Shown here: positions 2,041 to 44,524 of the stretch, piece after piece
Layout of the letters: each line of letters opens with the position of its first letter
Position numbering within the stretch: position 1 is the first letter of the stretch
Assembly: GCA_964449165.1 (NCBI GenBank)
Contig: CAYVAT010000004.1
Location: 91,317-155,316, forward strand
From: an uncultured Eubacteriales bacterium
GTDB lineage: Bacteria; Acidobacteriota; Aminicenantia; Aminicenantales; Aminicenantaceae
Reading direction: 5' to 3'
DNA length: 64,000 bases
Notes under the pieces: model-generated
Told to the model about the DNA's origin: nothing
Database searches by the model: none
Seen by the model: the letters and a program-made list of their open reading frames with translations, nothing else
Position numbers and translations under genes: made by a program

Positions 2041-2122
2041 TCGATGTTCTAAAGGCGTGTGTTAAAGAAGCCCCTTGCGCCCCTCATCATTTTTAATCGG
2101 ATAGAACCCAGTATTTGCTGTT

Positions 2123-3283
2123 TTAGTGTTGTTTCAATTCCCCCTTGTCAATCTTTACCCAGTTCACTTGTGTAATCATCTGATGCAAAGCCGCTTTGGC
2201 CACGGCGACCTGGGTAGCATACTTCGGTGTTGTGCTTGCAGGAAAAGTTGCGAGTGTTGCGTCGCCGACAAGAAAGACATTGAAGTCTTTGCTCAGATTT
2301 TCGTAGCCGCACGTGGTGCTGATGACACACATATCTGTGGCGTATCCGGTCAGTAAAATGTGACGTACACCTTTGCTCTTCAAGTAATCGCGGACTTTTT
2401 GGTACCCTTCATCGTCATAAAACACTATATCGTTTTTTCTCAGCTCGAGAGATTTAACAATCGGAATCGGCAACTGCCCGTATCCTGGTCCGTTATAGTA
2501 GACACTGTCATCCGTGGAGGGAGTGAGACTAAAGTAGCTCTTAACGGGCGTATTTGCGTCAAGTAGAAGGGTTTTTTTCAATGGATTCCCTTCGAACTTG
2601 TGTCTGCTCAACAATTCAGCGAGCAAGTTCTTACCCTGTTCGATGTCCTGTTCTTCAGGCTTTGTTAATATTGAGGAATAGAGAAGCTTTCGAACTTGGT
2701 CTTCCGAGCCCGGCAAAGAATGTCCTACAAGAGAAACATAACCGCGCAACCGGGATAAAAAAGGGTTAATCACGTCCTGAACGTGCATGATCATTAACTT
2801 ATTTTTTTCTGGAGTGCCGAAGAATTTGCACCCCGCAGGTTCGGGCGTTTTCAGTCCATGTCCATCATCGATACCCCAAGGATGGACATTAATAATTGCT
2901 GTTGCTTTTGCCTCAAGTCGATTCTCCATCTCGACAATACCGCGGGCATTGTACCAGTAACGCCAGGACCTAACGAGCATATCGCTGGCCTTCTCGTCCA
3001 CGACCGGCGGTGCTAGAAAACGGTGATCCGATTGCAAAGGTTGGACATATTCTGGATAGTCAGCCAGCAATGGCATAGGATCTTTGATTTTTTCTAAAGT
3101 ATTATAATAATTATTTGTAGATTTTTCTCTTTTATTCAATTCGTACAACGCTTTCAGTTTTTGATTGGCAAACAGTACCAAGGAAATTGTGAGTAGTCCC
3201 CACAAAATTACGGTAATTATGCTTCTTTGTTTATGGGAATTTCTTTTTAGTACTTGCCGCGAATTCTTTACAATTTTAATCAA
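2123..3283 (-). CDS. Membrane-anchored isochorismatase-family (cysteine hydrolase) protein
   Basis: N-terminal TM (IITVILWGLLTISLVLF); C-terminal region HILLTGYATDMCVISTTCGYENLSKDFNVFLVGDATLA resembles the isochorismatase/CSHase catalytic Cys region. Confidence 0.55.
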   Translation of the reverse strand: MIKIVKNSRQVLKRNSHKQRSIITVILWGLLTISLVLFANQKLKALYELNKREKSTNNYYNTLEKIKDPMPLLADYPEYVQPLQSDHRFLAPPVVDEKASDMLVRSWRYWYNARGIVEMENRLEAKATAIINVHPWGIDDGHGLKTPEPAGCKFFGTPEKNKLMIMHVQDVINPFLSRLRGYVSLVGHSLPGSEDQVRKLLYSSILTKPEEQDIEQGKNLLAELLSRHKFEGNPLKKTLLLDANTPVKSYFSLTPSTDDSVYYNGPGYGQLPIPIVKSLELRKNDIVFYDDEGYQKVRDYLKSKGVRHILLTGYATDMCVISTTCGYENLSKDFNVFLVGDATLATFPASTTPKYATQVAVAKAALHQMITQVNWVKIDKGELKQH

Positions 3284-3391
3284 TCCTCACTCCCTTCAGC
3301 GAGCAGTTTATCGCCCAACTAAAATTCTTTATATTTTATGTATCTTATTGCTAATTTTTGATAAGTTCAGTCTGAATTTTCACAATCAATT

Positions 3392-4096
3392 TCACTTAAG
3401 AAAATTCAGTATATATTCACAGTGCATAAAATCAAACTCGGTATCGACATCCATCGATTCTTTTTCAGAGATGATTACACCTTTCATGTTCTGGTTATCC
3501 AAGATATTTTCCTTATAAATGATATGAGTTTTCATAGCATCAACCACACCATTGATTCGATAAACAGGCGGCAGAAGTTGACGCTGATAATATTTGCTGA
3601 GTTTTATGTCTCCTGAAATAAGCTCGGCACTTCCGTCTTCGGATAATCTATACATCCAGTAAGGATGGTGAACTCCTTCCACCAGGGTCATCGTCCTTAC
3701 AACATCTGCACCAGTATCTCTTATCTTCTTGACTACCCTGTCAATGATTTGCGGAGTTTTAAACGGGGTGGTAGGTCTTAAGTTTACGACAATCTCAGGC
3801 TCGTAATCATCGTTGTTTTTTAACCATTCAAGGACATGTAAAAAGACTGGCTGGTCAGGAGTGTCACTTTTGGCTAATTCAGCAGGTCTCAGGAAAGGAA
3901 CCTCCGCGCCCCATTTTCGAGCGACCTCTGCTATTTCTTCATCATCTGTTGAAACAACCAGCCGTTCGATTGAAGTCGAGTGCAATGCGGCCTCGATGGT
4001 GTAAGCAATCAAAGGCTTGCCAGCAAGAAGCCTTATGTTTTTCCTCGGAACTCGCCTGGAGCCTCCGCGAGCAGGAATTATGCCCAGCACCTTCAT
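3392..4096 (-). CDS. CMP-nonulosonate (acylneuraminate-family) cytidylyltransferase, copy 1
   Basis: MKVLGIIPARGGSRRVPRKNIRLLAGKPLIAYTIE...VSTDDEEIAEVARKWGAEV matches the NeuA/CMP-NeuAc synthetase-family N-terminus; ATG at 4096 overlaps the upstream TGA (ATGA), so start taken at the internal Met rather than the ORF-track start. Confidence 0.85.
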   Translation of the reverse strand: MKVLGIIPARGGSRRVPRKNIRLLAGKPLIAYTIEAALHSTSIERLVVSTDDEEIAEVARKWGAEVPFLRPAELAKSDTPDQPVFLHVLEWLKNNDDYEPEIVVNLRPTTPFKTPQIIDRVVKKIRDTGADVVRTMTLVEGVHHPYWMYRLSEDGSAELISGDIKLSKYYQRQLLPPVYRINGVVDAMKTHIIYKENILDNQNMKGVIISEKESMDVDTEFDFMHCEYILNFLK

Positions 4097-5229
4097 TTTA
4101 TTTTTTTTACGATATTCTTCAAATTTTCTATTATGTAGTTTTGATCCTCCACCGTAAGACCAACCCACATAGGTAAATCAATGAGTTGCTTCCATGCCTT
4201 GTAGCTCGTAGGATAGGAGTCATTTTTATACCCAAATCTCTTCTGGTAGTAAGGCTGGATGTGAATAGGGGGAAAACTCAATCGAGTGTCGATTCCTCTC
4301 GATTTTAATTCAGATACAACTCTGTCACGATCCAGCCCTTCTTTCAATGAAACGGCATACATATACCAGGCATGGCGATTGACATATTCAGGCACAAAGG
4401 GTGGAGAAATATCAGTGGATTCCCTGAATGCGTCGCTATACCTTTCAGCAATCTTGTTCTTCTCATTCAGAATAAATTCAACTCTCTTGAGCTGCTCGAT
4501 CCCGATAGCTGCTGGAATATCCGTCATACGATAGTTGTATCCCAGGTGAATATGGTGATACCGATAATCCTGTCCCTGGTTGCGAACCTGCCGTGTTAAG
4601 ACAGCTTTTTCATCATCATCGGTTGTGACCATCCCTCCTTCACCTGTTGTGATGTTCTTGTTTGGAAAGAAGCTGAATATATGTAGAGGAGCGATCGATC
4701 CCACCTTTCTCCCTTTATAAACAGCCCCCAGTGATTCTGCACTGTCAGCAATAACAATCAAGCCCTTCTCTTCTGCAAAAGCGAGCAGGTGGTCATAGTC
4801 AACCGGCATCCCATTCATGTCCACTGCAATTATGGCCTTTGTCTTGCCTGTTATTCTCTTCTCGGCATCTTCAAGGGAGATATTATAAGTCTTTGGATCA
4901 CACTCCACCAGAACCGGAATGGCTCGTTCATACAGTACAACATTAGCAGTCGAGATAAATGTTATGGTAGGAATAAGCACTTCATCGCCTTCCTCAATGC
5001 CAGATGAAATCAAGGCAAGGTGCAAAGCCGTCGTTCCACTGTTGGCTGCAATCGCATGTCTAGCTCCCACATACCTCGCAAATTCATTTTCAAATTCCTC
5101 AACCCTCTTCCCCATACTCAACCATCCGGACTTAACCACCTCGTACACAGCCTTAGCCTCTTCCTCACCGAGGTAGGGATTTGCCAAGGGAATATTTTTC
5201 ATTTGTAAGTGCTCCTTCATTTTATTCAT
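4093..5229 (-). CDS. DegT/DnrJ/EryC1/StrS-family PLP-dependent sugar aminotransferase (PseC/LegC/WbpE-like)
   Basis: NPYLGEEEAKAVYEVVKSGWLSMGKRVEEFENEFARYVGARHAIAANSGTTALHLAL...SFFPNKNITTGEGGMV typical of DegT family; true start may be the internal Met at about 5202. Confidence 0.85.
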   Translation of the reverse strand: MNKMKEHLQMKNIPLANPYLGEEEAKAVYEVVKSGWLSMGKRVEEFENEFARYVGARHAIAANSGTTALHLALISSGIEEGDEVLIPTITFISTANVVLYERAIPVLVECDPKTYNISLEDAEKRITGKTKAIIAVDMNGMPVDYDHLLAFAEEKGLIVIADSAESLGAVYKGRKVGSIAPLHIFSFFPNKNITTGEGGMVTTDDDEKAVLTRQVRNQGQDYRYHHIHLGYNYRMTDIPAAIGIEQLKRVEFILNEKNKIAERYSDAFRESTDISPPFVPEYVNRHAWYMYAVSLKEGLDRDRVVSELKSRGIDTRLSFPPIHIQPYYQKRFGYKNDSYPTSYKAWKQLIDLPMWVGLTVEDQNYIIENLKNIVKKIK

Positions 5230-5250
5230 TACTGTAGATGCCTGAATGTT

Positions 5251-6273
5251 TCATCTTATGATTTCTTCGTCATTACCTTCATATCGTGGAATAGTATCAT
5301 CAGTATACCAGTCGGTCGTCTTCATTAATCCTTTCCTTAAGGATGTTTGAGGTTCATATCCCAGAGACCGTATCTTGGCAATGCTCGGGCACCTTCTTCT
5401 TGTTCCTCCCGGGAGACGCTTGCCAGGTATTATATTAATCTTGAATTCCAGCAATCCTGCAATCTCTTTAGCGAGATCAGCAATGGTGATTTCATCTTCA
5501 GTACCAATGTGGTAGATCTCACGGCTCTTGCCGAGAGTAGCACACAGAAGTATTCCTTCTACAGCGTCATCAATGTAACAGAATGACCTGGTCTCTTCTC
5601 CTGTTCCCTGAATCGGAAAGTCAATCTCTTTCCTTCGAAAATTATCACTCAGTGTTTTCATGCGCAGTATGAATTGGGGGATGACATGACCCACTCCCAT
5701 ATCAGGACCGTAAAAATTGTGTGGACGGCATATCACGGTTCTCAAGCCAGTCTTTGCAGTATAATGAATAGCTAACAGCTCGGTTATTATTTTTCCTCCA
5801 CTGTATGAAAATCTTGGATTTTTGACATCAGGAATAATGAGCCTTTCCTCTTCGGAAGTAGGGATATGTGAAGGCTCCTGATACACTTCTGATGACGAAG
5901 TGACTAAATAATTACTTACTCCGCATCTCATGGCTGCATCTAGTGTATTCAAGGCACCCTTGACACCCACCTCAAGCACCCTTTCAGGAATTCTGTAGAA
6001 ATTCTCTGTGCCGTTGATAAAGGCAAGGTGAAACAGGGTATCAATCCCCTTGCATGCTTGATAAACCTGATTGAAATCTGTGACATCTCCTTCTCTGTAG
6101 TCAACCTTCTCCAGATACCCTTCCAGTCTGCGGACCATTCCCCTTGAGTTGTTGTCGAGGATACGTACAGAGGCACCTCCATCCACCAATCTCTTGGTCA
6201 GATTGGAACCGACGAATCCTGTTCCCCCGGTTATCAATATTTTTCCCAAGTTCGCTGTCTTTATCCTCTGCAT
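5251..6273 (-). CDS. NAD-dependent epimerase/dehydratase (extended SDR), nucleotide-sugar modifying
   Basis: ILITGGTGFVGSNL Rossmann motif, YSGGK catalytic YxxxK, about 340 aa. Confidence 0.8.
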   Translation of the reverse strand: MQRIKTANLGKILITGGTGFVGSNLTKRLVDGGASVRILDNNSRGMVRRLEGYLEKVDYREGDVTDFNQVYQACKGIDTLFHLAFINGTENFYRIPERVLEVGVKGALNTLDAAMRCGVSNYLVTSSSEVYQEPSHIPTSEEERLIIPDVKNPRFSYSGGKIITELLAIHYTAKTGLRTVICRPHNFYGPDMGVGHVIPQFILRMKTLSDNFRRKEIDFPIQGTGEETRSFCYIDDAVEGILLCATLGKSREIYHIGTEDEITIADLAKEIAGLLEFKINIIPGKRLPGGTRRRCPSIAKIRSLGYEPQTSLRKGLMKTTDWYTDDTIPRYEGNDEEIIR

Positions 6274-7943
6274 CCTATCCCTATGTATCTAATGTTATTA
6301 ACTGTTATGATATCTTTAGGTTCAAAGGTATACCAGCCATCCACGAAAATACAGTCATTCCTGGCAGAATTCAGCAAATCAAACACATCCATCTTCTTGT
6401 AGCTTTTATGATTATTCATGATCAGCACCACATCTGCATCCTTGAAGCCTTCAGCGATAGAAACCGGCTTCACACCCAATGCTGTTATCTCTTCCTGTGA
6501 CACGATCGGATCATAGCCAAAAAAGGAGCTGTCTCTCATCCCCTTTTTACGGAAGTGGTTTAATAGATCTATGGTAGTTGAGCCTCTTAGGTCAGATGTT
6601 TCTGGCTCTCCCTTAAAAGCAAATCCAATAATAAAGATTTTTAATTTATCGATCTTTTTCTTCAACTCCATGATCTGTTGATATACGTCTTCCACAATAT
6701 GGTAGGGAATAAATTCGTTTATCTGTCTCGAGTGTGAGACCATCCTGGGTTGGTGCTTTAGTTCCTTACATGAGTGGATCAGGAAGTATGGGTCCTTGGT
6801 AAGGCATGCTCCTCCAACACCAGGGCTGGGTACCGGTATCTCATCCCTTACGTATCCCAGATTTGCGGCCTGTACCAATTTAACCATATCCAGTCCCAAT
6901 TCTTTACACACCAGTGCCATCTCGTTTGCGTACCCGAACTTGACATCGCGGAAGGTGTTATTGAGAATTTTAACCATCTCTGCACCTTCCAAAGATCCTA
7001 CATCCACAATTATCGGTGTAATCTCTCTGAATAACCTGTTAACAAGCATCGTGCTTTTCTTGTCATATCCACCTATTATCTGAGGCAGTTCTTTGATTTC
7101 AGATATCGCTCTGCCTTCAATTGTTCTTTCAGGTGCATAGGCCAAATAGTAATCAATGCCTGCCTTGAGGCCTGACAGCTCGTTCAGGATTGGTAACATG
7201 ACCTCTCTTGTTGTTCTCACCGGTACCGTAGAACGTAAGACAACTAGATCGTCCGGCTTTAAGAATTTGGCTATATACCTGGCGGCTTCCTCGATATTAT
7301 CGATAATTGGTTTCTTCGTCTCAGGGTTAACCGGAGTCCCTACTGATACGATATACGTATCCACTTTCAATCCAGAGAGATCAGAAATAGGGATGAGATT
7401 TTTCCCGACGTATCTATGAAGGTAAGCCTCCAGATTGTCTTCATAAAAGGGAACGAATCCATTCTTGATTTTTTCAATCAGCTTGCCGTCTGTATCATAC
7501 CCAAATACCTTAAATCCAAATTCGGCGAGGACAACCGATAATGTCAAGCCGACATAGCCCAGTCCGATCATACAGATCTGTCGGGACTTGGCATCCAGTA
7601 AAACACTCTTATCCTTGAAGGTTATGACTCCTTTAACACGTCCGTTATCGTCTAATACGGGTATCTGGGCATACTTTTCATTGACCAGCTCCAGCATTGT
7701 CTCCCGACTCATGCCTTCTTTGACCACGATAGGAGAGCGATTCATGATGTTTTTTACGGGTTCATCTGCATCATGCCCGCTTAAGAATCCTCTCCGGATA
7801 TCTCCGTCCGTAACGATACCCACCAGGCGGTCCTCGTCATCCACAATCATGGCAAATTTTGAGGCCGATTCATTGATAGCCTTCATGACCTCAAAAATAC
7901 TCTTACCCTCGGGAACCATTATTGATTGGATATCATATAACAT
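6261..7943 (-). CDS. CBS-pair domain fused to UDP-glucose/GDP-mannose dehydrogenase-family enzyme (UDP-N-acetylhexosamine 6-dehydrogenase-like, WbpA/WecC-type)
   Basis: N-terminal about 110 aa CBS pair (IVTDGDIRRGF...GVITFKD), then CMIGLGYVGLTLSVVLAEFGFKVFGYDTD NAD-binding start and conserved GGAC(L)TKD catalytic region. Confidence 0.8.
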   Translation of the reverse strand: MLYDIQSIMVPEGKSIFEVMKAINESASKFAMIVDDEDRLVGIVTDGDIRRGFLSGHDADEPVKNIMNRSPIVVKEGMSRETMLELVNEKYAQIPVLDDNGRVKGVITFKDKSVLLDAKSRQICMIGLGYVGLTLSVVLAEFGFKVFGYDTDGKLIEKIKNGFVPFYEDNLEAYLHRYVGKNLIPISDLSGLKVDTYIVSVGTPVNPETKKPIIDNIEEAARYIAKFLKPDDLVVLRSTVPVRTTREVMLPILNELSGLKAGIDYYLAYAPERTIEGRAISEIKELPQIIGGYDKKSTMLVNRLFREITPIIVDVGSLEGAEMVKILNNTFRDVKFGYANEMALVCKELGLDMVKLVQAANLGYVRDEIPVPSPGVGGACLTKDPYFLIHSCKELKHQPRMVSHSRQINEFIPYHIVEDVYQQIMELKKKIDKLKIFIIGFAFKGEPETSDLRGSTTIDLLNHFRKKGMRDSSFFGYDPIVSQEEITALGVKPVSIAEGFKDADVVLIMNNHKSYKKMDVFDLLNSARNDCIFVDGWYTFEPKDIITVNNIRYIGIGCRG

Positions 7944-8000
7944 CTCAGACTTTCCTTTCTAAAAAACTTATTACAAATAATATTGATTTAAAAATTTCTG

Positions 8001-8837
8001 TCAGAGGAGGTTCATCACCTGCTGTGAATTCATATAATCAGCGAGGGAGATGAGCGAATCATCATCTGGAAGGAACAGGAAATTCTCATTTGAGCGGTTG
8101 AATTGCCTTGGATTTTTGAGTATCGCTCCGGATTTTATTTGAGTGATCATGTAACCCAGTTCTTTCAGCAATTGTGCAGCATGGCTCTTTGAAGGATTGT
8201 CATCCTCCCATTTCTCACGGAGTATTTCGAGCACTATTACAGGTCGGTTCTTGACAATGGTGCTTTTTGCTCCTTCAAGGACAGCGTTCTCATGACCTTC
8301 TGCATCACATTTAATCAGCGAAACTCGTCTGTCAGATAGGGTTGAATAAGCGAGGTTGTCCAGCTGATTGGCAGGGATTTGGATTTTCTGCATATGCTCA
8401 TCATTTTTTATTTGATCTGCAGTATCAACTATGGCTGCAGTAGAGGAGATGGATGTATATGGAGGGACGAACATTTTCTTGGAACAGGCCTTGTTTGAAA
8501 GAGCGATATTCAGGCAAAGAATATTGCTATGGCGTTTTGTTCTTTTTTTTAGGAACTGATAATTCCCTGGGACAGGCTCGAAAGCGACTACAATACCATT
8601 TGGTCCCACTAGATGAGAAAGTCTTATCGTCCAGGCACCAATGTATGCACCAACATCAACAGCAGCAGAATCCTTTTCAACCAGACCTGACACAGAATTA
8701 AGCAAAGTGATCTCATTTGCTGTTAATTCTTCAGTGAGAAGTATATTTATTCTCTTGTAGTTATGCTGTATGAATGATGCGGCCGATTGACCGAGAAGCC
8801 TGTATATTGTTTTACGGAGTGCTCTTGGAATTCTCAA
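8001..8837 (-). CDS. FkbM-family SAM-dependent methyltransferase
   Basis: VDVGAYIGAWTIRLSHLVGPNGIVVAFEPVPGNYQFL...LIKCDAEGHENAVLEGA is the FkbM-domain pattern. Confidence 0.7.
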   Translation of the reverse strand: MRIPRALRKTIYRLLGQSAASFIQHNYKRINILLTEELTANEITLLNSVSGLVEKDSAAVDVGAYIGAWTIRLSHLVGPNGIVVAFEPVPGNYQFLKKRTKRHSNILCLNIALSNKACSKKMFVPPYTSISSTAAIVDTADQIKNDEHMQKIQIPANQLDNLAYSTLSDRRVSLIKCDAEGHENAVLEGAKSTIVKNRPVIVLEILREKWEDDNPSKSHAAQLLKELGYMITQIKSGAILKNPRQFNRSNENFLFLPDDDSLISLADYMNSQQVMNLL

Positions 8838-9715
8838 TCTTCCCTTCTTAAAATATTTTTAACCATCTGATATTGGCTCATGATCTCTGCTGTTTTAATT
8901 CCCCTGCATTCGATGGTTATCGGTATCTTTCCCGGATCAAATCTCCTTACAGCTCTCAGTTGCCAGCAATCCGGGGCTAAAAGAACATGTTCATCTTTCT
9001 TGCCATCATTTCCAGATAAATGGATTTCAAAAATCTTGTCCTGGAAACCTTTGCTAAGGGTTTCTATGAATTCGTCTTTATTGAAACCAAAATAATTTGC
9101 GGAGATAACGAGATGCCCTAAATCTAACAGAAAGCCTATATTGTCGTCCTGTCTGCAATAATCGAGAAACTGAATAATCTCAGCCGGAGTGCAGAGTAAT
9201 GAACTATCAGGAGCATCACTAATCGGAAAGAGGTTCTCCAGACCAATCCTGACTCCCCGCATGACAGCATATTTCCTGATCTCCAAAAGCGATTCATACA
9301 TAATGGCTGATGCATATGCAGGGCTTATACCTGAATAACCATCAGCTACAAAGTAATCACTTTCTTGTGAGGCTCGTAATTCTCTCGTATAGCCTGGATG
9401 CAGCGTATAGCAATCTATTTCTAAATCATGGGCTAGATCGATGCTTCTTTTGACAAAATTGATGCTTTTTAATCTTGTTTCTTTATTACTGCTTGCAATA
9501 TTTAAAACAAAGTCTTTCTTGGATGGAGGGAAATAATTATGAATGAGAAGATTAAGAGAAAATTCTTTCTTTAAGCCTTTCAGTTTTTTCAAGATGTTGT
9601 CAGAATAGCTCAGTCCTCCGCTGAGCTCAATATTACAAATACAAATACTAGCAAGTGTGTTGATAGATTCCTCTAGAGAAGAGCTGTTAACAGCTGCAGA
9701 AGAAACATAGATCAT
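8834..9715 (-). CDS. Xylose-isomerase-like TIM-barrel sugar (phosphate) isomerase/epimerase family protein
   Basis: Motifs YTLHPGY, GLENLFP and LDLGHL spaced as in AP-endonuclease-2/xylose-isomerase TIM barrels. Confidence 0.6.
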   Translation of the reverse strand: MIYVSSAAVNSSSLEESINTLASICICNIELSGGLSYSDNILKKLKGLKKEFSLNLLIHNYFPPSKKDFVLNIASSNKETRLKSINFVKRSIDLAHDLEIDCYTLHPGYTRELRASQESDYFVADGYSGISPAYASAIMYESLLEIRKYAVMRGVRIGLENLFPISDAPDSSLLCTPAEIIQFLDYCRQDDNIGFLLDLGHLVISANYFGFNKDEFIETLSKGFQDKIFEIHLSGNDGKKDEHVLLAPDCWQLRAVRRFDPGKIPITIECRGIKTAEIMSQYQMVKNILRRED

Positions 9716-26975: not shown

Positions 26976-27058
26976 CCTGTGTCGAACCTCCCGTTTTTAG
27001 ATTTGTGAAATTCTTGCTTCTTCTATAATGACATTCCTTTATGCTGAATTATTATAGC

Positions 27059-27433
27059 TTAATCAGTATCTCGAAGTAATCCTTTTTTCTCTGTTTGTGA
27101 TAATGGATAATTCTCATCGCTAATTTCTTTCTCTAAATCTTTCTTTAATTCTTCAATCTCAATTCTTAAGACATCGTATTCATGCAACTTTTTATCCAGA
27201 AAATGATATGTAAGCTCCATCTTTTTCTTTATGCCTTTGGGTGTCAGAATATACATATAGGCAAGCTTTTTCTTTGAGTTTTTGAATTTCTCTGCCTTGA
27301 TCAGGCCTTTATCAATAAGGGCATTGAGGACGTAGTTCACCTTGCCAAGGCTGAGACCAAGCTTTTTAGAAAGGTCACGCTGGGAGAGGGTTTTGTCCTT
27401 TGCCAGTTCCTTCAGGATTTTAAGATTGTCCAT
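27059..27433 (-). CDS. Small winged-helix transcriptional regulator (MarR-like, EPS-locus-associated type) at the head of the glycan locus
   Basis: 124 aa; LSQRDLSKKLGLSLGKVNYVLNALIDKGLI helix-turn-helix with following wing; first gene of the co-directional block. Confidence 0.55.
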   Translation of the reverse strand: MDNLKILKELAKDKTLSQRDLSKKLGLSLGKVNYVLNALIDKGLIKAEKFKNSKKKLAYMYILTPKGIKKKMELTYHFLDKKLHEYDVLRIEIEELKKDLEKEISDENYPLSQTEKKGLLRDTD

Positions 27434-28225
27434 TTCTGTTTAAGAAAATAGGATTAGAGATAGGCTACCGCCGTCGGGATCTCACTCTACCTCTTTCTCA
27501 ATAACTTACCTATCAGAGGCAGTGCGTTCAAACTCTGAACAAGTATATCCAATTAGTTTCGGAAAAGTCAACCGGAGATTTTTAACGCGGATAAAGGAGC
27601 GGACGTTAAAGGCCCTTGAAAGGAGGCAGAGGGTTTGTATGTCAAGAAGGGAAAGGTTCAATAAATTCGATATTTGATGCTTTTTCGTTATGTTATGATA
27701 CCTATATAAAGCAGGCATAAAGATTGTCAAAACAACAATTCAACAATATGACAAAATAGATAGCACACATGAACAAGTTTAATATTAATAATACTGTCTA
27801 TCTACAGTAATTTACAGCAACGAAATAGATGACTGAAGTAGCCCCCAATTGGGGCCACTTCAATGAGCTAATATCCTTATTAAACCACACACTAAAATAA
27901 TGAACCCATGATACAGGAGATTTTTTATGTCGCGTTTCATTCCTGTTTTCCAATAGAAGAAATTGATAGTTAATGAAAGATAAAAGAAAAAGAATTAGTA
28001 AGCTACCGCTGTTAGAAAAATCAGCAAAACAGATCAAATTGGTCTATCTAAATGATAGTCAAAGCCAGACTAATACTTTGATATATATTCTCAATATCCC
28101 AGAGTAGGCTGGCTAATCTTAAACTTTTTTGATTATTTTGTCCGGGTGCCATTCCAATACTTGCCATTTCTCATTTATAGTAAAAATTTTTATTATTATG
28201 GACATATCCTTAGAAGCTTCTCCAT

Positions 28226-28639
28226 TTATAATAGATAGACAATTTTATCTTCCCTGATTTCACAGGCAACAGATGGAGGCACCTGCTTAATCTTCTCAGT
28301 CAGATGCATTCCTTTCTCTATGATGAAGCCTTTGTGGCGATCATGAAAGAGTTTATTTATGTATTGATAACGTCGATTTAAGTAATAGGTATAACCGCTG
28401 TTGATTCGACGAATAGTAGGGGTAAGGTTGTTTTTACATGTTTCCATGAGATAAGCTTCCAGATCAGGTAGATGGACATAACCATAAAATGTGAGTTTAC
28501 TTTTGATCCTTTGTTGTTTGAGAAGATTTATAAAATAGCTTTTGTCCTGATCATCTTTAAAGATTTCTCGGCTGTCATTTCCTTTGGAACTGACGCGATA
28601 AGCTAAATCTTTGCCCTCAATCCTTGGGTGTCGTGTCAT
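28226..28639 (-). mobile_element. Degenerate IS200-like/COG1943 (Y1 HuH transposase, REP-associated-type) remnant, 137 aa, probably inactive
   Basis: N-terminus MTRHPRIEGKDLAYRVSSKGNDSREIFKDDQDKSYF follows the PRIExxGAxYHVxxRGN consensus of this family; the region aligning to HuH reads YVHL (one His lost) and the GRYK catalytic-Tyr region reads DRHKG. Confidence 0.5.
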
Positions 28640-28877
28640 ATAGAAGATTCCTCGTTTCTTAAAGCAGTATTTTTGATACTTTAATCTAAAGGAATTTATT
28701 TGTCAAAGGCTAACATACCAGTGTTTCAGGGCAAAGTGGTGAGGCTTTTCTCTTCTCCAAATGTCAACTGAAAGATCTTTTTGAGTATGATCAGCATCAT
28801 TGAGGGCGAAGCGAAACAGCTTTGATGTATTGATTCTACAGGGAAGATGTGTTAAATTTTTTTCTGAAGCCACAGAA

Positions 28878-37443: not shown

Positions 37444-39768
37444 TCAAATTTCTTGATCATTAAAGTGAATTAATAAGATTGTAAATGAGTCTTTAGTGTA
37501 TTCACCTGAATTTGGAGTAAAATTGGAGCCCCATCGGGCTATTCCCTTTGATATGCGTATCTCATCCAGCCAGCCATTGAAATGCTCTTCAGCGCCTCTG
37601 GATCCGATATGGAGCGGAGCTTCTGAATCGTATATTGAGACCTGCCCTATATCATGACTTTCACCTAGCTGAAAGCCATCAACAAAGGCCATAAGGTCTG
37701 AATCCTTCCTGACTATGGCTATGTGGTACCATCTATCCTTTGATGCAGACCAGTGGAACTTCGCATCCGTGTCGTTTTCTCCATCTGAACTATAGGAGAA
37801 CTTTATGCTTTTCGATTCTCCCTCCCATGCAATCTGCCATGCCTTGTCAGGACTGTAATACGGGTAGCCAACGAGAACCTGAGTTCCAGATGTATGTACA
37901 AATCTCACCCAGAAATCTATCGTGAAGTCTTCCGAGCTAAATGCCCAGCCTGGACGGTCTGCAACCTGCAGGTGGCTTCCGGCTCCATCAAAGAAAACAG
38001 ATGCACTGCCAAATTTTGGGTGTGCTGTATCAATCCGAACATTTCCATGAGGTATTATACTTCCCAACCGGAAGAGTTTGAATATGCCAATATGATAGAT
38101 TTCGGTGACATCGAACTCTTGATCCTTGATCCTTATTTTCTTTGGTTTATTTTGAAGTTGACTGAGAACAGGATCCTTATCCCAAGACCTGAATGAGGCA
38201 ATATATTTGATGTCTTTAATAAATAGATTTTTTGTATAATATGTAACAATATTTTTCTCGGGTATATCAGAAAGATAAGTAGCACAGGGCACCATTTTTC
38301 CAGGCATTAGTATCATTTCCTCGTTTTTCACTCTGTTTTTGACAACATTTAATCCAGCTTTTAAATCCCACAAACCGCCATACATATTATTGACTGTTGA
38401 TATGTGAGTGGAGACTAATGGAGTTATCAGCAAAAATAGAGGCAATAATAATAAATGACCTTTCGACCTGAAATGCCCTACTTTAAAAAAAACGTATACA
38501 CAGATTGGCAGAAATATTAAAAATCTTTTGAGGCTGTTTATATCAAAGCTGAGACTGAAAAACTCATGGTATGAATTTCTTATATACGGTGTGTTGAAAG
38601 CGCTATAAGCTACAATAATTCCCAATATTCCCAAAATAGATGCCACGATTATTTTTTTTTGATGTGGCCATCGCTTTAGAAAATATTCAATACCAGCGAT
38701 TGTATAAAGAGGGAACATCCACTCAATGAAATAGAAAAATCGCCAGGTTGTGTAGAAATAAAACCACAGGAAGAACAAGTACGCCAGAAAAAAGGTGTGC
38801 ACCTTCCAGTTGTTCAGCTTATTAAATTTAATCAGATGGAATAATCCAATCAAAATAATTAAAATGTTAATAATCCATACTATTTGTACCCACCAACTGC
38901 TATGAAATCTGGTTTCAGGCGTTACAGAAGCCCAATGATCAGCTGGCAAATAGGATAAGGTTATGGTACGCAACAGGGAAATAAAATCTCCTGTTGGCTT
39001 GCTTGTAACAAAAAGTTTATGCTTGAACAGGGCTGGAATATATCCACCTTTACCGATGAAAAAAAAATGATTGACCAGCAGCCAGATGGCAGAAGGCAGA
39101 AGGACGATAAAAGTTAGAAATATTAGACGCCATTTTTTTTTAGTAATAATTTTGGGCAAATTGGCAAGCACCGCTAATGCTGCGTCATACCGAGTAAATG
39201 CAGCGAGACCAGAGATGGACAAGGAGAGTTTTTCATTTGTGACATAAAAGGAGAGAAGGATCAGGACCAGCATTGTAGCCTCAGGTAGGGGTTGTGTTCC
39301 ACAATAGAGAGAAAGGCTTGAAAAAGCAAAAATCCAGCTGACAAGGAATGAATTTTTTATTCCGATCTTCTTGCTTATCTTATAGATAAGAATTATCGAA
39401 CATAGATAAGTGAAATTACTCAGAAGGATACCAGAATAAAGGATAGCTTTCTTTACTGAAATAAGCTGTGAAACCAATCCCATTAGCAGAGGGAAAAGAG
39501 GTTCTCTTAAAGTTCCAAATGGCAGATTAAAATGAAGCAGTGCTTCAGTAATATCCTTAAAAGCAAAAAAATCGCTTAAAGGAGAATAGTATTTTCCAGA
39601 GAGTAAAACTAGATAATAACAAGATATTCCTAATGTTAATGCAAGGGCCGAGATAGAAGCGACATCCTTCTTTTTGGGGTAATCACTATTTTGTGGTTTT
39701 TCACACAGTGGGAATTTGCTTTTTTTGGGTTGCAGCAATTCTCTCCATTTTTTATTCAAATTTAACAA
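37444..39768 (-). CDS. Polytopic GT-C-type membrane glycosyltransferase (ArnT/PMT-like) fused to a C-terminal LamG/ConA-like domain
   Basis: About 12 predicted TM helices over the first 450 aa with the loop and TM pattern of ArnT/GT39/GT83 enzymes; last 180 aa (FTIDFWVRFVHTSGTQVLVGYPYYSPDKAWQIAWEGE...FNGWLDEIRISKGIARW) about 70 percent identical to the C-terminus of the sulfatase-like protein at 1-2040. Confidence 0.6.
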   Translation of the reverse strand: MLNLNKKWRELLQPKKSKFPLCEKPQNSDYPKKKDVASISALALTLGISCYYLVLLSGKYYSPLSDFFAFKDITEALLHFNLPFGTLREPLFPLLMGLVSQLISVKKAILYSGILLSNFTYLCSIILIYKISKKIGIKNSFLVSWIFAFSSLSLYCGTQPLPEATMLVLILLSFYVTNEKLSLSISGLAAFTRYDAALAVLANLPKIITKKKWRLIFLTFIVLLPSAIWLLVNHFFFIGKGGYIPALFKHKLFVTSKPTGDFISLLRTITLSYLPADHWASVTPETRFHSSWWVQIVWIINILIILIGLFHLIKFNKLNNWKVHTFFLAYLFFLWFYFYTTWRFFYFIEWMFPLYTIAGIEYFLKRWPHQKKIIVASILGILGIIVAYSAFNTPYIRNSYHEFFSLSFDINSLKRFLIFLPICVYVFFKVGHFRSKGHLLLLPLFLLITPLVSTHISTVNNMYGGLWDLKAGLNVVKNRVKNEEMILMPGKMVPCATYLSDIPEKNIVTYYTKNLFIKDIKYIASFRSWDKDPVLSQLQNKPKKIRIKDQEFDVTEIYHIGIFKLFRLGSIIPHGNVRIDTAHPKFGSASVFFDGAGSHLQVADRPGWAFSSEDFTIDFWVRFVHTSGTQVLVGYPYYSPDKAWQIAWEGESKSIKFSYSSDGENDTDAKFHWSASKDRWYHIAIVRKDSDLMAFVDGFQLGESHDIGQVSIYDSEAPLHIGSRGAEEHFNGWLDEIRISKGIARWGSNFTPNSGEYTKDSFTILLIHFNDQEI

Positions 39769-40099
39769 ACAACTGATACCTTTAAACGCTTTTAGGATTT
39801 ATATATCAGGGAAAATAGGAATGTCAAATAGACTGAGAGAAGCTTCCTTCTCGATATTAAACAAAACATTTTTCTTCACAAATGAGCTGAAGATGAGCTG
39901 TGAGGGAGAAAGATGTGAGGCTGAAATTGAGATGCATTTTTCCCAAACATTTGAGTCCTGAAGGTTCCAATTCTTGAAAATGAGGCAAAGAATGGAGATA
40001 ATTATTTCTTTTTAAAGAAGGAAATTGCTATTCATTGTGAAAAAATTCTTGTCTCTGCTCATCTCTCGTCTCTTCTCGGGTTTTTTCTGGAGAGAATAG

Positions 40100-41422
40100 A
40101 TGTTCAATAATGCAAGAGCAATGTTCCATGTGATGAATGAAGCAAAGCTTCATCGCCTTGAACTCGATAAACTTGTATATCGACGTCTCAGGGCCATACT
40201 GGTATCTGCTTACCTGAACGTCCCTTACTACAGGGAACTAATGAAAAATGTAGGCTACGATCCTTCTCAGGACTATCAAGGCCCTGAGGATCTTTCCAAG
40301 CTTCCGATTACAAAGAAGGAAGTTATAAAACAGAGAAGAATCCGAGACTTTATCATGCAGCATAAAGATCTTTCTGGATGTTTAAGAGATACAACATCCG
40401 GGTCAACAGGAATTCCATTGGTAGTTTATAGAACTTGTTATGAACGCGCTTTTCAGATCGCCAAGTTTCTGCGCATCTTATTTTTGAATAGATACTCGAT
40501 GAGCAATAAAGTGATGTCGCTTACCAGACCGGATAAGCTTACAGAGGGACGGAGTGTTGTCCAGCGATTTGGATTTCTAAGAAGGAATGCGATCGACTTT
40601 CTTCGCTACTCACCAGAAGAGATGGTCGATATTCTCATCGAATACAAACCAGATGTGTTATATGGCAATCGCGCGCATCTTGAACTCATGGCACTGGAAT
40701 TGCAACGCCGTGGAATTCAGTGTGATAGCTTAAAGATTGTCTTGACAACTGGGGAAGCCATTCACGAGAATACTCGGCGGCTCTGCCAGAAGCAGTTTGG
40801 GGTTGACCCCGTGGAGACATATGGATCAATAGAGATGGGAATAATGGGATACGAAACTCCAGCGCATGATGGACTTCATCTCTATGAAAATCTGACTTAC
40901 TTTGAATTCCTGGACGAAGAAGAGAAACCAGTCCCACCTGGAAAACCTGGAAGAGTCATTGTGACGGATCTGATAGGGAAACTCATGCCTTTTATCAGGT
41001 ATGATCAAGGAGACTTTGCAGCTTTTGAGTATGGGAAAGACCTGAATGGTAATACTCAGCGGAGGCTAACCCAAACCATAGGTCGCGAGAATGACTACGC
41101 ATTGCTTCCAGATGGGACGAAACGTCCCTATAATGATTTGGTCAAGATAGTAGACAAATTTGAAGATATCAGGCAATTCCGTATTGTGCAACAAAAGCGA
41201 AGCCTATTCCAGATATTGATTGTCGCGGATACTTCTTATTTTCTCTCAATCCACGATGATCTCATGCGTCTGCTGCAGAAAAAATTTCCTCCGAATGTGA
41301 GCTTCAAAATTGCCCAGGTAGAGAAAATCGAACCAGACCCAAGCGGCAAAATGAGGGCATTCGTTTCAGAAGTTGACCGGATTTCCGATAAAGTTCCTGG
41401 AGAGATATCAGTAAAGGGATGA
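40100..41422 (+). CDS. Adenylate-forming enzyme of the phenylacetate-CoA ligase/CapK/F390-synthetase family
   Basis: DTTSGSTGIPLVVY (T-S-G-S-T-G P-loop of PaaK family) and family-typical length. Confidence 0.75.
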   Translation: MFNNARAMFHVMNEAKLHRLELDKLVYRRLRAILVSAYLNVPYYRELMKNVGYDPSQDYQGPEDLSKLPITKKEVIKQRRIRDFIMQHKDLSGCLRDTTSGSTGIPLVVYRTCYERAFQIAKFLRILFLNRYSMSNKVMSLTRPDKLTEGRSVVQRFGFLRRNAIDFLRYSPEEMVDILIEYKPDVLYGNRAHLELMALELQRRGIQCDSLKIVLTTGEAIHENTRRLCQKQFGVDPVETYGSIEMGIMGYETPAHDGLHLYENLTYFEFLDEEEKPVPPGKPGRVIVTDLIGKLMPFIRYDQGDFAAFEYGKDLNGNTQRRLTQTIGRENDYALLPDGTKRPYNDLVKIVDKFEDIRQFRIVQQKRSLFQILIVADTSYFLSIHDDLMRLLQKKFPPNVSFKIAQVEKIEPDPSGKMRAFVSEVDRISDKVPGEISVKG

Positions 41423-41530
41423 TACTCTGATCCATCCAACATTGAGATGTCTGTTCTTTTTTGATGTAGCTCAAAAATTTTTACTCTCTGGCATCACATT
41501 TTTGGCTGATGGAGCTGATGCGGAGGTACA

Positions 41531-42502
41531 TTGATATCGAGGAAAAGCGTATTCTGGGCCTTGCGAATAATAATAAGCGCAGCGCTGATTGGATACCTGC
41601 TGGCAACAGCTAACCTCGGCGAAATGTTTGTCAAAATCAAGTCATGTCATGTCTCACTTTTTTTATTCAGTCTTCTGATAGGCGTCCTTCGTAATGTGAT
41701 ATTTGCCTATCGATGGAGAGTCCTACTTACTGGAAGTGGAATTAAAGTTCCCTTTGTAACATTGGTCAAATTTTACTTCGGGGGGACTTTCTTTAATCTT
41801 TTCCTGCCTACGACTTTAGGAGGAGATGTGGTGAGAGGCTACGATCTTGCTATACATTCAGAGAAGAAGATGGATGCAGCTTCATCTGTGTTGGCAGAGA
41901 GAATCATTGGTTCCTTTGCACTCATTTTCATTGCTTTGTTTGCCATATTATTTGGACGGAAAAGGATTGAAAATACTCAAGTGATTAATGTCATTCTTAT
42001 CGTATGTATCAGTTATTTTACATTGGCGATAATCGTATTTAACGCCAGGATTATGAAGAGACTTATTGCTCTGTTCAAGTTCGGCTCACTCTGGAGCATA
42101 GGAAAGCGGCTGGATCGGATGTATAGTTCGCTGCGTGCGTTCTTTGCCAACAAAGTGATTCTATGTCTTTGTTTTGTTCTCTCCATAGTCTGCCAAACGC
42201 TGACAATGGTGGCGGTTTACCTTCTTGCATTGGCCATCAACCTGAGGCTCCCGCTTGTCTACTTTTTCATGATATTGCCCATGATTTGGATTGTAACCAT
42301 GGTTCCTCTGTCAATAAATGGACTGGGAGTAAGAGAAGGGGCTTTCGTTTTTTTCTTCACAGAAGTGGGAGTATCTGGCTCTTCGGCACTATTGTTTTCA
42401 TTCCTGAATCTTTCACGAATGATTGTTCTCGGCTTGATATGCGGGACCATCTATTTATTCTCTCAGATGCCTCTTCCATTCAAAAAACTCACAAAGAAGT
42501 GA
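41531..42502 (+). CDS. Flippase-like integral membrane protein (UPF0104 / lysyl-phosphatidylglycerol-synthase TM-region family)
   Basis: 8 TM helices; ...FYFGGTFFNLFLPTTLGGDVVRGYDL... is the family signature. Confidence 0.7.
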   Translation: MISRKSVFWALRIIISAALIGYLLATANLGEMFVKIKSCHVSLFLFSLLIGVLRNVIFAYRWRVLLTGSGIKVPFVTLVKFYFGGTFFNLFLPTTLGGDVVRGYDLAIHSEKKMDAASSVLAERIIGSFALIFIALFAILFGRKRIENTQVINVILIVCISYFTLAIIVFNARIMKRLIALFKFGSLWSIGKRLDRMYSSLRAFFANKVILCLCFVLSIVCQTLTMVAVYLLALAINLRLPLVYFFMILPMIWIVTMVPLSINGLGVREGAFVFFFTEVGVSGSSALLFSFLNLSRMIVLGLICGTIYLFSQMPLPFKKLTKK

Positions 42503-42586
42503 AGGCAGATTATTTTACGCCAAACAAGTAATATGTATTTTGTGGAATTTTTAGATGGCTATTCTTTGGAAGTGGAAGAATAAATT

Positions 42587-43561
42587 TTAGTCTGCTCGGT
42601 ATAGCTTCCTCTTAGATATATAATAATCAGCATAATAGTGAGAACATTCTTCGCACAAGGAAGGAGGCTTCTTTAGGAGATGCTTTTTCCTCATTTCCCT
42701 CATGATTTTATTTTTGAATAGACTCTGGAGATTTTCTCTTTTTGCATTTCCTATGACCATTTTTCCATCAAAATCCACACAACACGGAACAACATCTCCA
42801 TTCCACAAAACTACCAAGATTCGCCAGAGTTCCCGGCAGGGAGTATAATTTTTCTTGGTAATAGTAAAAAATTTTGGCTGGATATTCACAAAATCTGCCT
42901 TATTTTTCCATCTGATGAAAAAAGAATCAATCTCTGCAGTCGTCTCGTTAAATATCAGCATGGAAACTTCTACCCAGGTCTTTTTTTTAGAATCATTCCT
43001 CATCTGAATGAAATTTAATATATTAGACTCAATTTTTTCATAGGGAAAACCTCTCACTCTTTGATAGGTTTCCTTGCCTCCATCTACTGAAAACTTTATT
43101 ATATCCAATCCGCTTTCCAGGAGTTCTCTGGTAAGAGATTTATCCAGAAGAGTTCCATTCGTTGTTAAAGCTGTTTGCTTTCCTCTTGAATGGGCATAAC
43201 GAATCATTTCTATGATATCAGGGTGAATTAATGGTTCTCCCCAGTTGGTTAGATAAACTCTTTGAATCTCAGGATTTAAATCGATGATTTTTTTAAAAGT
43301 TTCAAATTTCATATATCCTTTTTCCCTCTTCATCTCTTTCGGTACAGGACAGCAGATACATTCAAGGTTACAAGTGTTGTTTGTTTCGATACCGACAGTT
43401 GTCAGTTTATATGCTCCAGGAATATGAGCAAGGCGGAAGAATTGATTAAGTGTTTCGCTAAATATCAATTTAGGGGTTGAATATCGAGCGAGAAGGGAAG
43501 GGAACAGCTTTGATTTGTTAAAAATTTTTGTAGTAATTAATCGAACGAGACTCTTATACAT
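42587..43561 (-). CDS. Radical SAM enzyme with C-terminal SPASM/twitch-like Cys-rich domain
   Basis: CNLECICC (CxxxCxxC), SVDG motif, C-terminal CCVDFDGKMVIGN...LCEECSHYY cysteine cluster. Confidence 0.75.
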   Translation of the reverse strand: MYKSLVRLITTKIFNKSKLFPSLLARYSTPKLIFSETLNQFFRLAHIPGAYKLTTVGIETNNTCNLECICCPVPKEMKREKGYMKFETFKKIIDLNPEIQRVYLTNWGEPLIHPDIIEMIRYAHSRGKQTALTTNGTLLDKSLTRELLESGLDIIKFSVDGGKETYQRVRGFPYEKIESNILNFIQMRNDSKKKTWVEVSMLIFNETTAEIDSFFIRWKNKADFVNIQPKFFTITKKNYTPCRELWRILVVLWNGDVVPCCVDFDGKMVIGNAKRENLQSLFKNKIMREMRKKHLLKKPPSLCEECSHYYADYYISKRKLYRAD

Positions 43562-43565
43562 CTTA

Positions 43566-44399
43566 TTAACGTGGTTTCTTAACTAAAAAAACAATCAAAT
43601 AGCCGTAATGCCTAAAGAATTCAAAGTGGTTATAGAGTGCCTCAAAAGGGGCTAGAAGGACCTCTGTTATTTTCGTTAAAGGGCGGAAATGGACATATGA
43701 AAAGAGATCTAGAATTCTTAATATTCCTGGCATAAAAAGTAAAGAAGATTGATCAAGTATTATGAAATCATTTTTTTTTAAAATCTGAGCCATCTGCTTT
43801 TTCGAAAATGACTTCTCATACCCGAAGGAATAAAGGCCTAGTTTTTGAAGCAAGAAAACCTGGAAAGGCCTTAGAAAGGGATCATATTTGTTGGGAACAC
43901 CTATAATTGCTTTGCCATCAGGTTTCAGCACCCGATACATTTCTTGGCAAGCTTTATCATATTCTAAGAAATGCTCTGCTGTTCCCATCGAATACACATA
44001 ATCAAAACAATCATTCGAGAAAGGAAGATATCTGAGATCAGCGACATTAAGAAAAAGATTATTCTCACCGGTTTTCGTGGCATCAAGAGCTTGACGAGTA
44101 ACAAAGAAGGAAATGTCCACACCGAACGCTTTGGCTTTTTCTGTGAGAATCCATTTTAGGATTCGGGTGTTTTTAGCCTCATTCCACAAGTCTGTTTTCA
44201 AGATGCTCTTCCCCTCTAAGTTAGAAAAATAATTGGAGATTATTCTCTTTTCTTGATTAAAATATATTTTTGTAGAGGGGGATCCATAAAAAGATTTAAT
44301 ATCTTTTGCGGCTCGGTTCCAGAACTGTTTAAGCTTATTTTCCGAGAAATCTTCCGGCGTTTTATTCTTTTTTGACCGGATATGTCTTAAATTTTTCAT
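43566..44399 (-). CDS. Class I SAM-dependent methyltransferase (Methyltransf_11-like)
   Basis: ...LRYLPFSNDCFDYVYSMGTAEHFLEYDKACQEMYRVLKPDGKAIIG... motifs II and III of class I MTases. Confidence 0.7.
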   Translation of the reverse strand: MKNLRHIRSKKNKTPEDFSENKLKQFWNRAAKDIKSFYGSPSTKIYFNQEKRIISNYFSNLEGKSILKTDLWNEAKNTRILKWILTEKAKAFGVDISFFVTRQALDATKTGENNLFLNVADLRYLPFSNDCFDYVYSMGTAEHFLEYDKACQEMYRVLKPDGKAIIGVPNKYDPFLRPFQVFLLQKLGLYSFGYEKSFSKKQMAQILKKNDFIILDQSSLLFMPGILRILDLFSYVHFRPLTKITEVLLAPFEALYNHFEFFRHYGYLIVFLVKKPR

Positions 44400-44524
44400 C
44401 AGAGATGGTAAAAAGATTCTCTATAACGACTCATACGATAATTAATTGGCAAGTATCATAACATCCTGGAATCCAAAATATCAACACGTAGAAAATTTGA
44501 TAATTTTGTTAAAAACCTGAAATT

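Follow-up and report, generated by a model that had tools for sequence, protein, structure and literature searches.

The window analysed here, a stretch of 64,000 nucleotides (nt) from contig CAYVAT010000004.1 of an uncultured Aminicenantes-type bacterium (GenBank assembly GCA_964449165.1, positions 91,317 to 155,316 of the forward strand), carries four adjacent genes arranged as two converging pairs. The plus-strand pair encodes a 440-residue adenylate-forming (ANL) enzyme of the PaaK/CapK type (40100-41422), called as an open reading frame (ORF) and by its AMP-binding match, and a stand-alone, flippase-like membrane protein of the LPG_synthase_TM/UPF0104 family with 323 residues (41531-42502; PF03706, TIGR00374). 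On the minus strand lie the genes for a 324-residue radical S-adenosylmethionine (SAM) enzyme (42587-43561; Radical_SAM and SPASM matches in Pfam), predicted to be of the BtrN-like Twitch type, and for a 277-residue protein with the class I SAM-methyltransferase (MT) fold (43566-44399; Methyltransf_11). An earlier interpretation made from the letters alone (the sequence-only reading) had placed all four ORFs at exactly these coordinates, with domain classes that the Pfam and NCBIfam scores bear out, and had described the convergence of the pairs, whose facing stop codons in the UPF0104 and radical SAM genes are separated by a spacer of 84 nt (42503-42586). It had also taken the four genes for a single modification cassette containing a SPASM-type enzyme. 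The four genes are, however, two separate units: the MT–radical SAM pair, which probably tailors a cell-envelope sugar, and a set comprising the CapK-like enzyme, the UPF0104 protein, and a 774-residue polytopic membrane protein with a C-terminal LamG domain (37444-39768, minus strand; Laminin_G_3).

The cysteines of the radical SAM enzyme do not bear out its earlier designation as a SPASM enzyme. Their conservation was read from an alignment of 29 sequences, in which the radical-SAM motif CX3CX2C, situated in a partial TIM barrel, corresponds to C64, C68, and C71; the last is invariant, and the first two are present in at least 90% of sequences. Across the family the auxiliary cysteines C242, C260, C303, and C306 do not vary, and C261 is near-invariant. 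A full SPASM domain has seven cysteines in the pattern CX9-15GX4C ... CX2CX5CX3C ... C, which serve two auxiliary sites (Aux I and Aux II), but nothing matching the CX2CX5CX3C ... C half occurs in this alignment, and in the family no cysteine follows CX2C. The C-terminal Fe-S domain therefore has the four-cysteine pattern of a truncated SPASM, or Twitch, domain, and the cysteine set for a third cluster, on which the earlier label had hinged, is absent. The Pfam scores are 61.9 bits for Radical_SAM and 51.6 bits for SPASM, and the SPASM hidden Markov model (HMM) still scores this well because it covers the half common to SPASM and Twitch domains.

Comparison with known structures leads to the same class. 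In a profile search of all Protein Data Bank (PDB) sequences BtrN came first (E 1.3e-26), its alignment spanning the core as well as the C-terminal domain, and the anaerobic sulfatase-maturating enzyme (anSME) scored E 7e-12. Searched by themselves, the C-terminal 95 residues match only BtrN in the PDB. C242, C260, C303, and C306 align one-to-one with C169, C188, C232, and C235 of BtrN. An AlphaFold2 model of the enzyme (pLDDT 89.7) has a beta/alpha core, and Foldseek placed BtrN (4m7t; TM score 0.73, normalised to the target) at the top of its matches, followed by BlsE in second place, SuiB in third and fourth, and DesII in fifth; BlsE and DesII act on sugars, and SuiB matures peptides that are ribosomally synthesised and modified post-translationally (RiPPs). 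CteB and SkfB are also among the fold matches. BtrN oxidises a secondary alcohol of 2-deoxy-scyllo-inosamine, an aminocyclitol, and has a four-cysteine auxiliary cluster, in keeping with the single auxiliary cluster bound by Twitch domains (PMC9012708). The window enzyme is accordingly named here for its best structural match: sequence and model predict a BtrN-type Twitch enzyme with one radical-SAM [4Fe-4S] cluster and one fully cysteine-ligated auxiliary [4Fe-4S] cluster. HMM classification, which the sequence-only reading had left as a check, supports this by profile, with BtrN as the best match, but not by any named NCBIfam family, all such matches lying far below their cut-offs.

The family to which this enzyme belongs is large. 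A word-indexed homology search gave 59 proteins only, but an exhaustive HMMER scan recovered 13,456 cluster representatives at E <= 1e-30, the top matches having the spacing C-x17/18-C(C)-x41-43-C-x2-C. A distant archaeal member adjoins genes for a family 2 glycosyltransferase (GT2) and epimerases. Very long polypeptides of 900-1,977 residues (P0342, P0343, P0347, P0360, P0411, and P0413) contain up to four tandem radical SAM modules and could be either gene-calling merges or true multi-domain enzymes. One fusion joins a hexapeptide acyltransferase (Hexapep) to the radical SAM enzyme; fusions in the family are mostly such tandem repeats and are weakly informative.

The division into two units emerges from neighbourhoods around radical SAM homologues at 41-66% identity, each of which was searched with all window proteins. 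The more than 20 related loci, mostly from Ca. Aminicenantes, all have an MT of the same family next to the radical SAM gene whatever the other neighbours, and these partners are 50-62% identical to the window MT where scored; the nearest named relatives are Ca. Aminicenantes metagenome-assembled genomes. The two genes overlap by 4 nt at one extreme and stand about 210 nt apart at the other, and their order is reversed in L004/L005 (related loci are numbered with the prefix L). In the window the MT gene is the first of the pair and the radical SAM gene starts 4 nt past its stop codon; their coupling is tight and probably translational. A further 80 metagenome loci were scanned with the MT as anchor: a radical SAM gene lies downstream in 12 of the 14 with an MT at least 49% identical to that of the window, and none of the 66 where identity is 41-47% carries such a gene at all. 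The CapK, UPF0104, and LamG genes, in contrast, stand beside the pair only in L001, L002, L019, and L026, which are 88-100% identical to the window; the LamG membrane protein is syntenic in L019.

A more distant syntenic relative (L003, a 290-kb contig) has purF (77% identical) and rfaE (64% identical) directly adjacent to one another, and its MT–radical SAM pair is found about 8 kb from them, immediately upstream of LptD. Within the window, GC content is 0.36-0.42 in the bins between 38 and 44 kb, falling to 0.36 at the LamG protein, versus 0.44-0.47 in the flanking bins. Given their presence only in relatives at least 88% identical, the adjacency of purF and rfaE in L003, and this low GC content, the genes for the LamG, CapK-like, and UPF0104 proteins look like a lineage-specific insertion between purF and rfaE, and the MT–radical SAM pair is a mobile but self-contained module. 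No remnant of an MT–radical SAM copy was found upstream of LptD in the window, the position that the pair holds in relatives. Between Wzz and LptD the window has a low-GC (0.36) gap without a large ORF (26976-28799), where two small ORFs resemble, by eye, a 124-residue winged-helix regulator and a 137-residue Y1-transposase-like protein.

The obligate partner of the radical SAM enzyme scores 51.7 bits against Methyltransf_11 and has the Rossmann-like seven-strand fold, the acidic residue after beta2, and the adenine-binding motif of its class. It does not have the glycine-rich motif I (E/DxGxGxG), which contacts the methionine moiety of SAM. At residues 66-78 the segment K-T-D-L-W-[ND]-E-A-K-N (KTDLWNEAKN in the window protein) replaces GxGxG, and HMM alignments to the protein begin only past this point. 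Within this segment K68, D70, L71, W72, E74, and N77 are invariant. The family has about 1,800 matches and is marked by the very strong private motifs APSTxYYF, KTDLW[ND]EAKN, YSMGTxEH, GVPNKxDPFLRP, and LFMPGxLRxxDL; a search of a plasmid collection gave no match to the MT.

Members of this MT family also occur apart from the radical SAM enzyme. In the 66 loci with an MT 41-47% identical to that of the window (L040-L105, from outside Aminicenantes, many on truncated contigs), the MT closes a different operon, in which a SpeH-type S-adenosylmethionine decarboxylase (AdoMetDC) scoring above the TIGR03330 cut-off is followed by a tandem XrtH-like exosortase, a PTPS_related membrane protein, and then the MT (for example, L061 2031-6798, L066 2223-6771, and L058 2157-6774). 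The PTPS_related protein (PF10131), polytopic and 655 residues long, is present in 48/66 loci, the exosortase in 24/66, and the AdoMetDC in 17/66; this operon may represent an uncharacterised envelope or exosortase-linked system. One protein (P0278) is an MT::AdoMetDC fusion, and another (P0279) is a longer form of the MT with an N-terminal extension that appears GNAT-like by eye. Neither an AdoMetDC nor an exosortase match was found in the window. Among the 14 loci with an MT at least 49% identical, the two exceptions without a radical SAM gene (L027 2-2101 and L030 691-6703) encode MTs 52-57% identical to the window protein next to one or two CapK-like enzymes (25-27% identical) and a 375-residue protein that is, by eye, of the tandem-RidA/chorismatase type, a context that hints at an aryl-acid pathway.

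The surroundings of the pair point repeatedly to the cell envelope. Its neighbours in independent lineages include LptD, LpxD, Lnt and a GT2 enzyme, OmpA, and a GT4 enzyme with a membrane protein of about 800 residues that has weak similarity to putative glycosyltransferases; in this window they are the genes of a heptose, core, and O-antigen-ligase operon (rfaE, O-antigen ligase, heptosyltransferase). The remark in the sequence-only reading that such an enzyme is atypical for lipopolysaccharide (LPS) regions proves overstated. A gene block on the 36-kb plasmid of Brachyspira hyodysenteriae is linked to virulence and has a proposed role in lipooligosaccharide biosynthesis (PMC4267127). On this plasmid (pBHWA1; L106, locus 742-13500) rfbF, rfbC, epimerase, and glycosyltransferase genes surround seven annotated radical SAM genes, of which five are in tandem, and five of the seven match the window enzyme (about 28% identity for the best) with the same cysteine spacing, C-x17-C(C)-x43/44-C-x2-C. 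Together with the archaeal member in its glycan locus, this plasmid shows that, for an anaerobe, it is not unusual to have a radical SAM gene within an LPS region.

The second unit is built from proteins of more familiar kinds. The CapK-like protein scores 28.4 bits against AMP-binding, precomputed annotation adds CapK_C (PF27533), and its best PDB match is phenylacetate-CoA ligase (4r1l, E 2e-19), with PaaK structures covering residues 12-357. The motifs expected of ANL/PaaK enzymes (T[SG]G[ST]TG, YGxxE, a hinge RYxxGD, and a catalytic lysine near the C-terminus) can all be read from its sequence as TSGSTG, YGSIE, RYDQGD, and PSGK (GK). Its best NCBIfam matches are PaaK-like and all below cut-offs; identity with the PaaK equivalog (96.8 versus 700) or with DVU_1553 (118.7 versus 300) was rejected, and the window MT likewise fails to qualify as DVU_1556 (28.4 versus a cut-off of 155), so that the DVU_1553/DVU_1556 cassette is discounted. 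CapK homologues number 962 at E <= 1e-10, and orthologues 54-57% identical lie in polysaccharide loci with Wzx, GT2/GT4, acetyltransferase, and PGA_cap genes, joined in L021 by LPG_synthase_TM; such contexts would be expected of variable glycan-decoration genes. The UPF0104 protein is a full-length match to its family (PF03706 140.4 versus a cut-off of 33.4; TIGR00374 84.7 versus 43.2). In the LamG protein, Laminin_G_3 (61 bits) is the sole significant domain match; its membrane part (residues 1-570) has no Pfam, NCBIfam, or PDB match, leaving the GT-C label formerly given to it unconfirmed, and hhalign detected no relationship between this protein and two families of MT-associated membrane proteins. 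Its LamG domain is 61% identical over 211 residues to that of a sulfatase-fold protein at the left end of the window (1-2040, minus strand), a likeness that may reflect a recent shuffling of domains or a glycan target that the two have in common.

The flanks are as the sequence-only reading had described them, with the LamG protein on the left and LPS core genes on the right. The latter comprise, from Pfam and NCBIfam matches, the rfaE kinase domain (TIGR02198, 365 bits versus a cut-off of 345), a PHP protein, an O-antigen ligase, and a GT9 heptosyltransferase. The remainder of the window is a large surface-glycan region, with genes for NeuB, a CMP-transferase, DegT, a PglD-like acetyltransferase, an FkbM MT, Wzz, LptD, and dTDP-sugar synthesis. 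A scan for promoters and terminators together with an Rfam scan of 37-46 kb revealed no terminator-like or RNA element in the 84-nt convergent spacer, and the only Rfam hit in that interval, a chance snoRNA match, gives no riboswitch. The 125-nt spacer between rfaE and the MT gene (44400-44524, minus strand) holds one sigma-70-like site (44484-44455; 10/12 matches plus an extended -10 TG), and the pair may have its own promoter here; the site is a lead only, as site counts in the region are not above shuffle expectation. A search with PADLOC for a defence system gave generic viperin-core and MT-core matches only, and this possibility was set aside.

Taken as a whole, the explanation favoured here, which is given a little better than an even chance, is that both units belong to cell-envelope glycan biosynthesis and that the pair modifies a sugar bound for LPS or the outer membrane. 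As do BtrN and other radical SAM enzymes that act on sugars, the enzyme would generate a 5'-deoxyadenosyl radical and take hydrogen from a carbinol C-H, here in a small molecule of the sugar or cyclitol type; the substrate would be a nucleotide-linked or polyprenyl/lipid-linked sugar on its way to the LPS or outer membrane. Sugar-acting radical SAM enzymes of this kind include NeoN, BtrN, and an avilamycin enzyme, and in NeoN Cys249 is the hydrogen donor (PMC10991966). Two outcomes can be envisaged for the substrate radical. It may be oxidised to a ketone, with the electron passing to the auxiliary cluster as in BtrN, or it may be re-reduced from the opposite face, giving epimerisation, for which Cys261 would be a candidate hydrogen donor similar to Cys249 of NeoN. 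The MT-fold partner would alkylate the same substrate before or after the radical step, and the product would then enter an LPS or outer-membrane glycan. The second unit would constitute a strain- or genus-specific decoration set, in which the ATP-dependent, carboxylate-activating CapK-like enzyme, the flippase-like UPF0104 protein, and the LamG protein add a separate, strain-specific decoration; the two units may nevertheless cooperate. An earlier proposal that the radical SAM enzyme epimerises or methylates a sugar thus stands in part, as it fits a BtrN-like Twitch enzyme paired with an MT in envelope contexts, but not as a property of a four-gene cassette.

Several observations weigh against this explanation. 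The MT has no canonical GxGxG, so that methyl transfer itself is unproven, and its best structural matches, lipid and quinone MTs among them, are generic, which makes a lipid substrate possible. The envelope theme among the neighbours is guilt by association; some contexts of the pair, such as M16 peptidases, are uninformative, and the neighbours in L007 look by eye like an acyl-CoA dehydrogenase and an ABC transporter. The NCBIfam matches, all far below their cut-offs, point to no substrate of the pair. In addition, two contigs (L023 and L037) that are 99.9% identical to the JdFR-80 Aminicenantes locus lack nearly the whole radical SAM gene through a clean deletion of 887 bp (L022 8770-9656), and both, one of them a 1.8-Mb contig, retain an identical MT; the MT can therefore work without the radical SAM enzyme. 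This deletion is a natural presence/absence polymorphism, and dispensability of the radical SAM enzyme fits an accessory tailoring function.

Among the alternatives, a single pathway of four or five genes would have the CapK-like enzyme activate a carboxylate for attachment to a sugar, the MT and radical SAM enzyme C-methylate or epimerise it, the UPF0104 protein flip the lipid-linked product, and the LamG protein transfer it to LPS. The genes are indeed adjacent, and their arrangement is kept in the relatives 88-100% identical; in L027, L030, and L081 remote CapK-like genes are found close to genes of the MT family, L021 holds CapK, PGA_cap, an MT (albeit one without a match to the window MT), and LPG_synthase_TM, and members of the MT family generally go with large polytopic membrane proteins. 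Yet CapK and UPF0104 occur in none of the more than 20 more distant MT–radical SAM loci, the two gene pairs are convergent on opposite strands, and the distant CapK-like genes of L027 and L030 keep company with the chorismatase/RidA-like protein and no radical SAM gene, and a single pathway is considered unlikely. Slightly less likely still is a role in which the pair modifies not a sugar but a membrane lipid or prenylated cofactor, such as lipid A, a phospholipid head group, or a quinone. Matches of the MT include phosphoethanolamine/phosphatidylethanolamine N-MTs, UbiG/UbiE/Coq5, and CFA-synthase-like proteins, LpxD, Lnt, and LptD, which neighbour the pair, handle lipids, and the radical SAM core also matches GDGT-MAS (E 1e-14); however, the MT matches are simply the generic Methyltransf_11 neighbourhood, the GDGT-MAS match spans the core alone while the Twitch domain matches only BtrN, and distant radical SAM homologues sit in sugar-nucleotide loci.

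There is a slim chance that the MT-fold protein instead transfers an aminopropyl or aminocarboxypropyl group, from decarboxylated SAM (dcSAM) or SAM, to the same envelope molecule that the radical SAM enzyme tailors. The invariant D-L-W-[ND]-E-A-K-N in place of GxGxG invites this idea, as do the AdoMetDC genes in the MT operon of 17 of the 66 loci outside the radical SAM-linked clade, the fusion protein P0278, and the appearance among the MT matches of MccD, an aminocarboxypropyl transferase. The window, however, yielded no AdoMetDC, the adenine- and ribose-binding motifs are normal with no diagnostic aminopropyltransferase motif shown, and the evidence comes from a clade only 41-47% identical. 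Extended to the whole KTDLW family of about 1,800 members, and held to be equally improbable, the same idea would have a dcSAM/SAM aminopropyl or aminocarboxypropyl transferase act with a large polytopic membrane enzyme to attach an amine to a glycan or lipid of the envelope; in soil bacteria the amine could be the acceptor for a co-encoded exosortase, and in Aminicenantes the system would be coupled to the Twitch enzyme for a new decoration of the LPS or outer membrane. Maturation of an unannotated precursor peptide by the radical SAM enzyme is very improbable. Many SPASM/Twitch enzymes do act on RiPPs, and SuiB, CteB, and SkfB are among the fold matches, but Pfam and NCBIfam scans of the window proteins gave no RRE-type or PqqD domain, no protease or transporter is present, and conservation of the pair extends to the MT alone. 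Inspection of all ORFs of at least 20 residues in 39.7-44.6 kb upheld the earlier statement that no RiPP precursor lies nearby: no conserved small ORF adjoins the pair, and the only one called (39821-39961, plus strand, 46 residues, from a gene call in L002) lies 139 nt upstream of CapK. It is 51% identical in L019, where the flanking genes are at 88-89%, and is probably not a conserved coding gene. Least credible of all is the earlier suggestion that the enzyme is an anSME-like maturase for the sulfatase-fold protein at the left end of the window (PF00884, 152 bits; cut by the window end). Although anSME is a detectable homologue and the window does contain a sulfatase-fold gene, the match to BtrN is far better, there is one auxiliary site where anSME has two, the genes are 40 kb apart, the conserved partner is an MT, and no sulfatase homologue occurs in any other radical SAM locus searched. 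The sulfatase-fold protein also lacks the usual recognition motif, as had been noticed before, with threonine ('SPNTMNS') at the formylglycine position where the cysteine or serine of C/S-x-P-x-R is expected; by analogy with other enzymes of the alkaline-phosphatase superfamily, it would then have no need of formylglycine.

The locus is therefore a real, correctly placed gene set that is ordinary for a surface-glycan locus, and its MT–Twitch radical SAM pair is uncharacterised but made up of known kinds of enzyme. The useful results are the move of the radical SAM enzyme from the SPASM to the Twitch/BtrN-like class, the splitting of the cassette in two, and the rejection of the anSME and RiPP ideas. 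The case exposes an annotation trap, in that proteins with Pfam "SPASM" matches and just four C-terminal cysteines are BtrN-type Twitch enzymes, a class for which the substrates to look for are small molecules and not peptides or sulfatases. It also defines a conserved two-gene module in an uncultured Aminicenantes lineage, which offers a tractable target for a new anaerobic sugar or envelope modification. The stakes are moderate and no known paradigm is broken; nevertheless, one characterised radical SAM member would annotate many others in the family of 13,456 representatives, including the virulence-linked Brachyspira plasmid genes.

The known systems closest to these two units can be set beside them one by one. 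In the second unit, the CapK-like protein keeps the ANL motifs of PaaK/CapK (COG1541) yet stays below every equivalog cut-off, and the UPF0104 protein similarly resembles the LPG_synthase_TM flippase domains of the MprF type but is without a fused synthase domain. For the radical SAM enzyme, anSME and the SPASM RiPP maturases belong to the same superfamily and have in common with it the CX9-15GX4C first half of the C-terminal domain; the second auxiliary motif (CX2CX5CX3C...C) is absent from the window enzyme, which has neither a peptide substrate nor a sulfatase target. The B. hyodysenteriae plasmid shares the cysteine pattern, the sugar-gene context, and an anaerobic host, but carries seven radical SAM genes and no KTDLW-type MT. 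BtrN (2-deoxy-scyllo-inosamine dehydrogenase of the butirosin pathway; PDB 4M7T) has the same architecture, in which the radical-SAM core precedes a Twitch domain that has a four-cysteine auxiliary [4Fe-4S] site, and its spacing, C-x18-C-x43-C-x2-C, compares closely with C-x17-C-x42-C-x2-C in the window. The two nonetheless differ, with identity of only about 18%, in that the window enzyme has a 55-residue helical N-terminal extension, an extra near-invariant cysteine beside the second ligand (the 'PCC' motif), and an obligate MT partner, and in that it resides in the LPS locus of an uncultured Aminicenantes-type bacterium rather than in an aminoglycoside cluster. HygY, SpeY, NeoN, and AviX12 are Twitch or other sugar-acting radical SAM epimerases and dehydrogenases of antibiotic pathways, which abstract hydrogen at a sugar carbon and then either oxidise the substrate or return hydrogen from a cysteine thiol. 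The window enzyme, too, has a conserved non-ligand cysteine.

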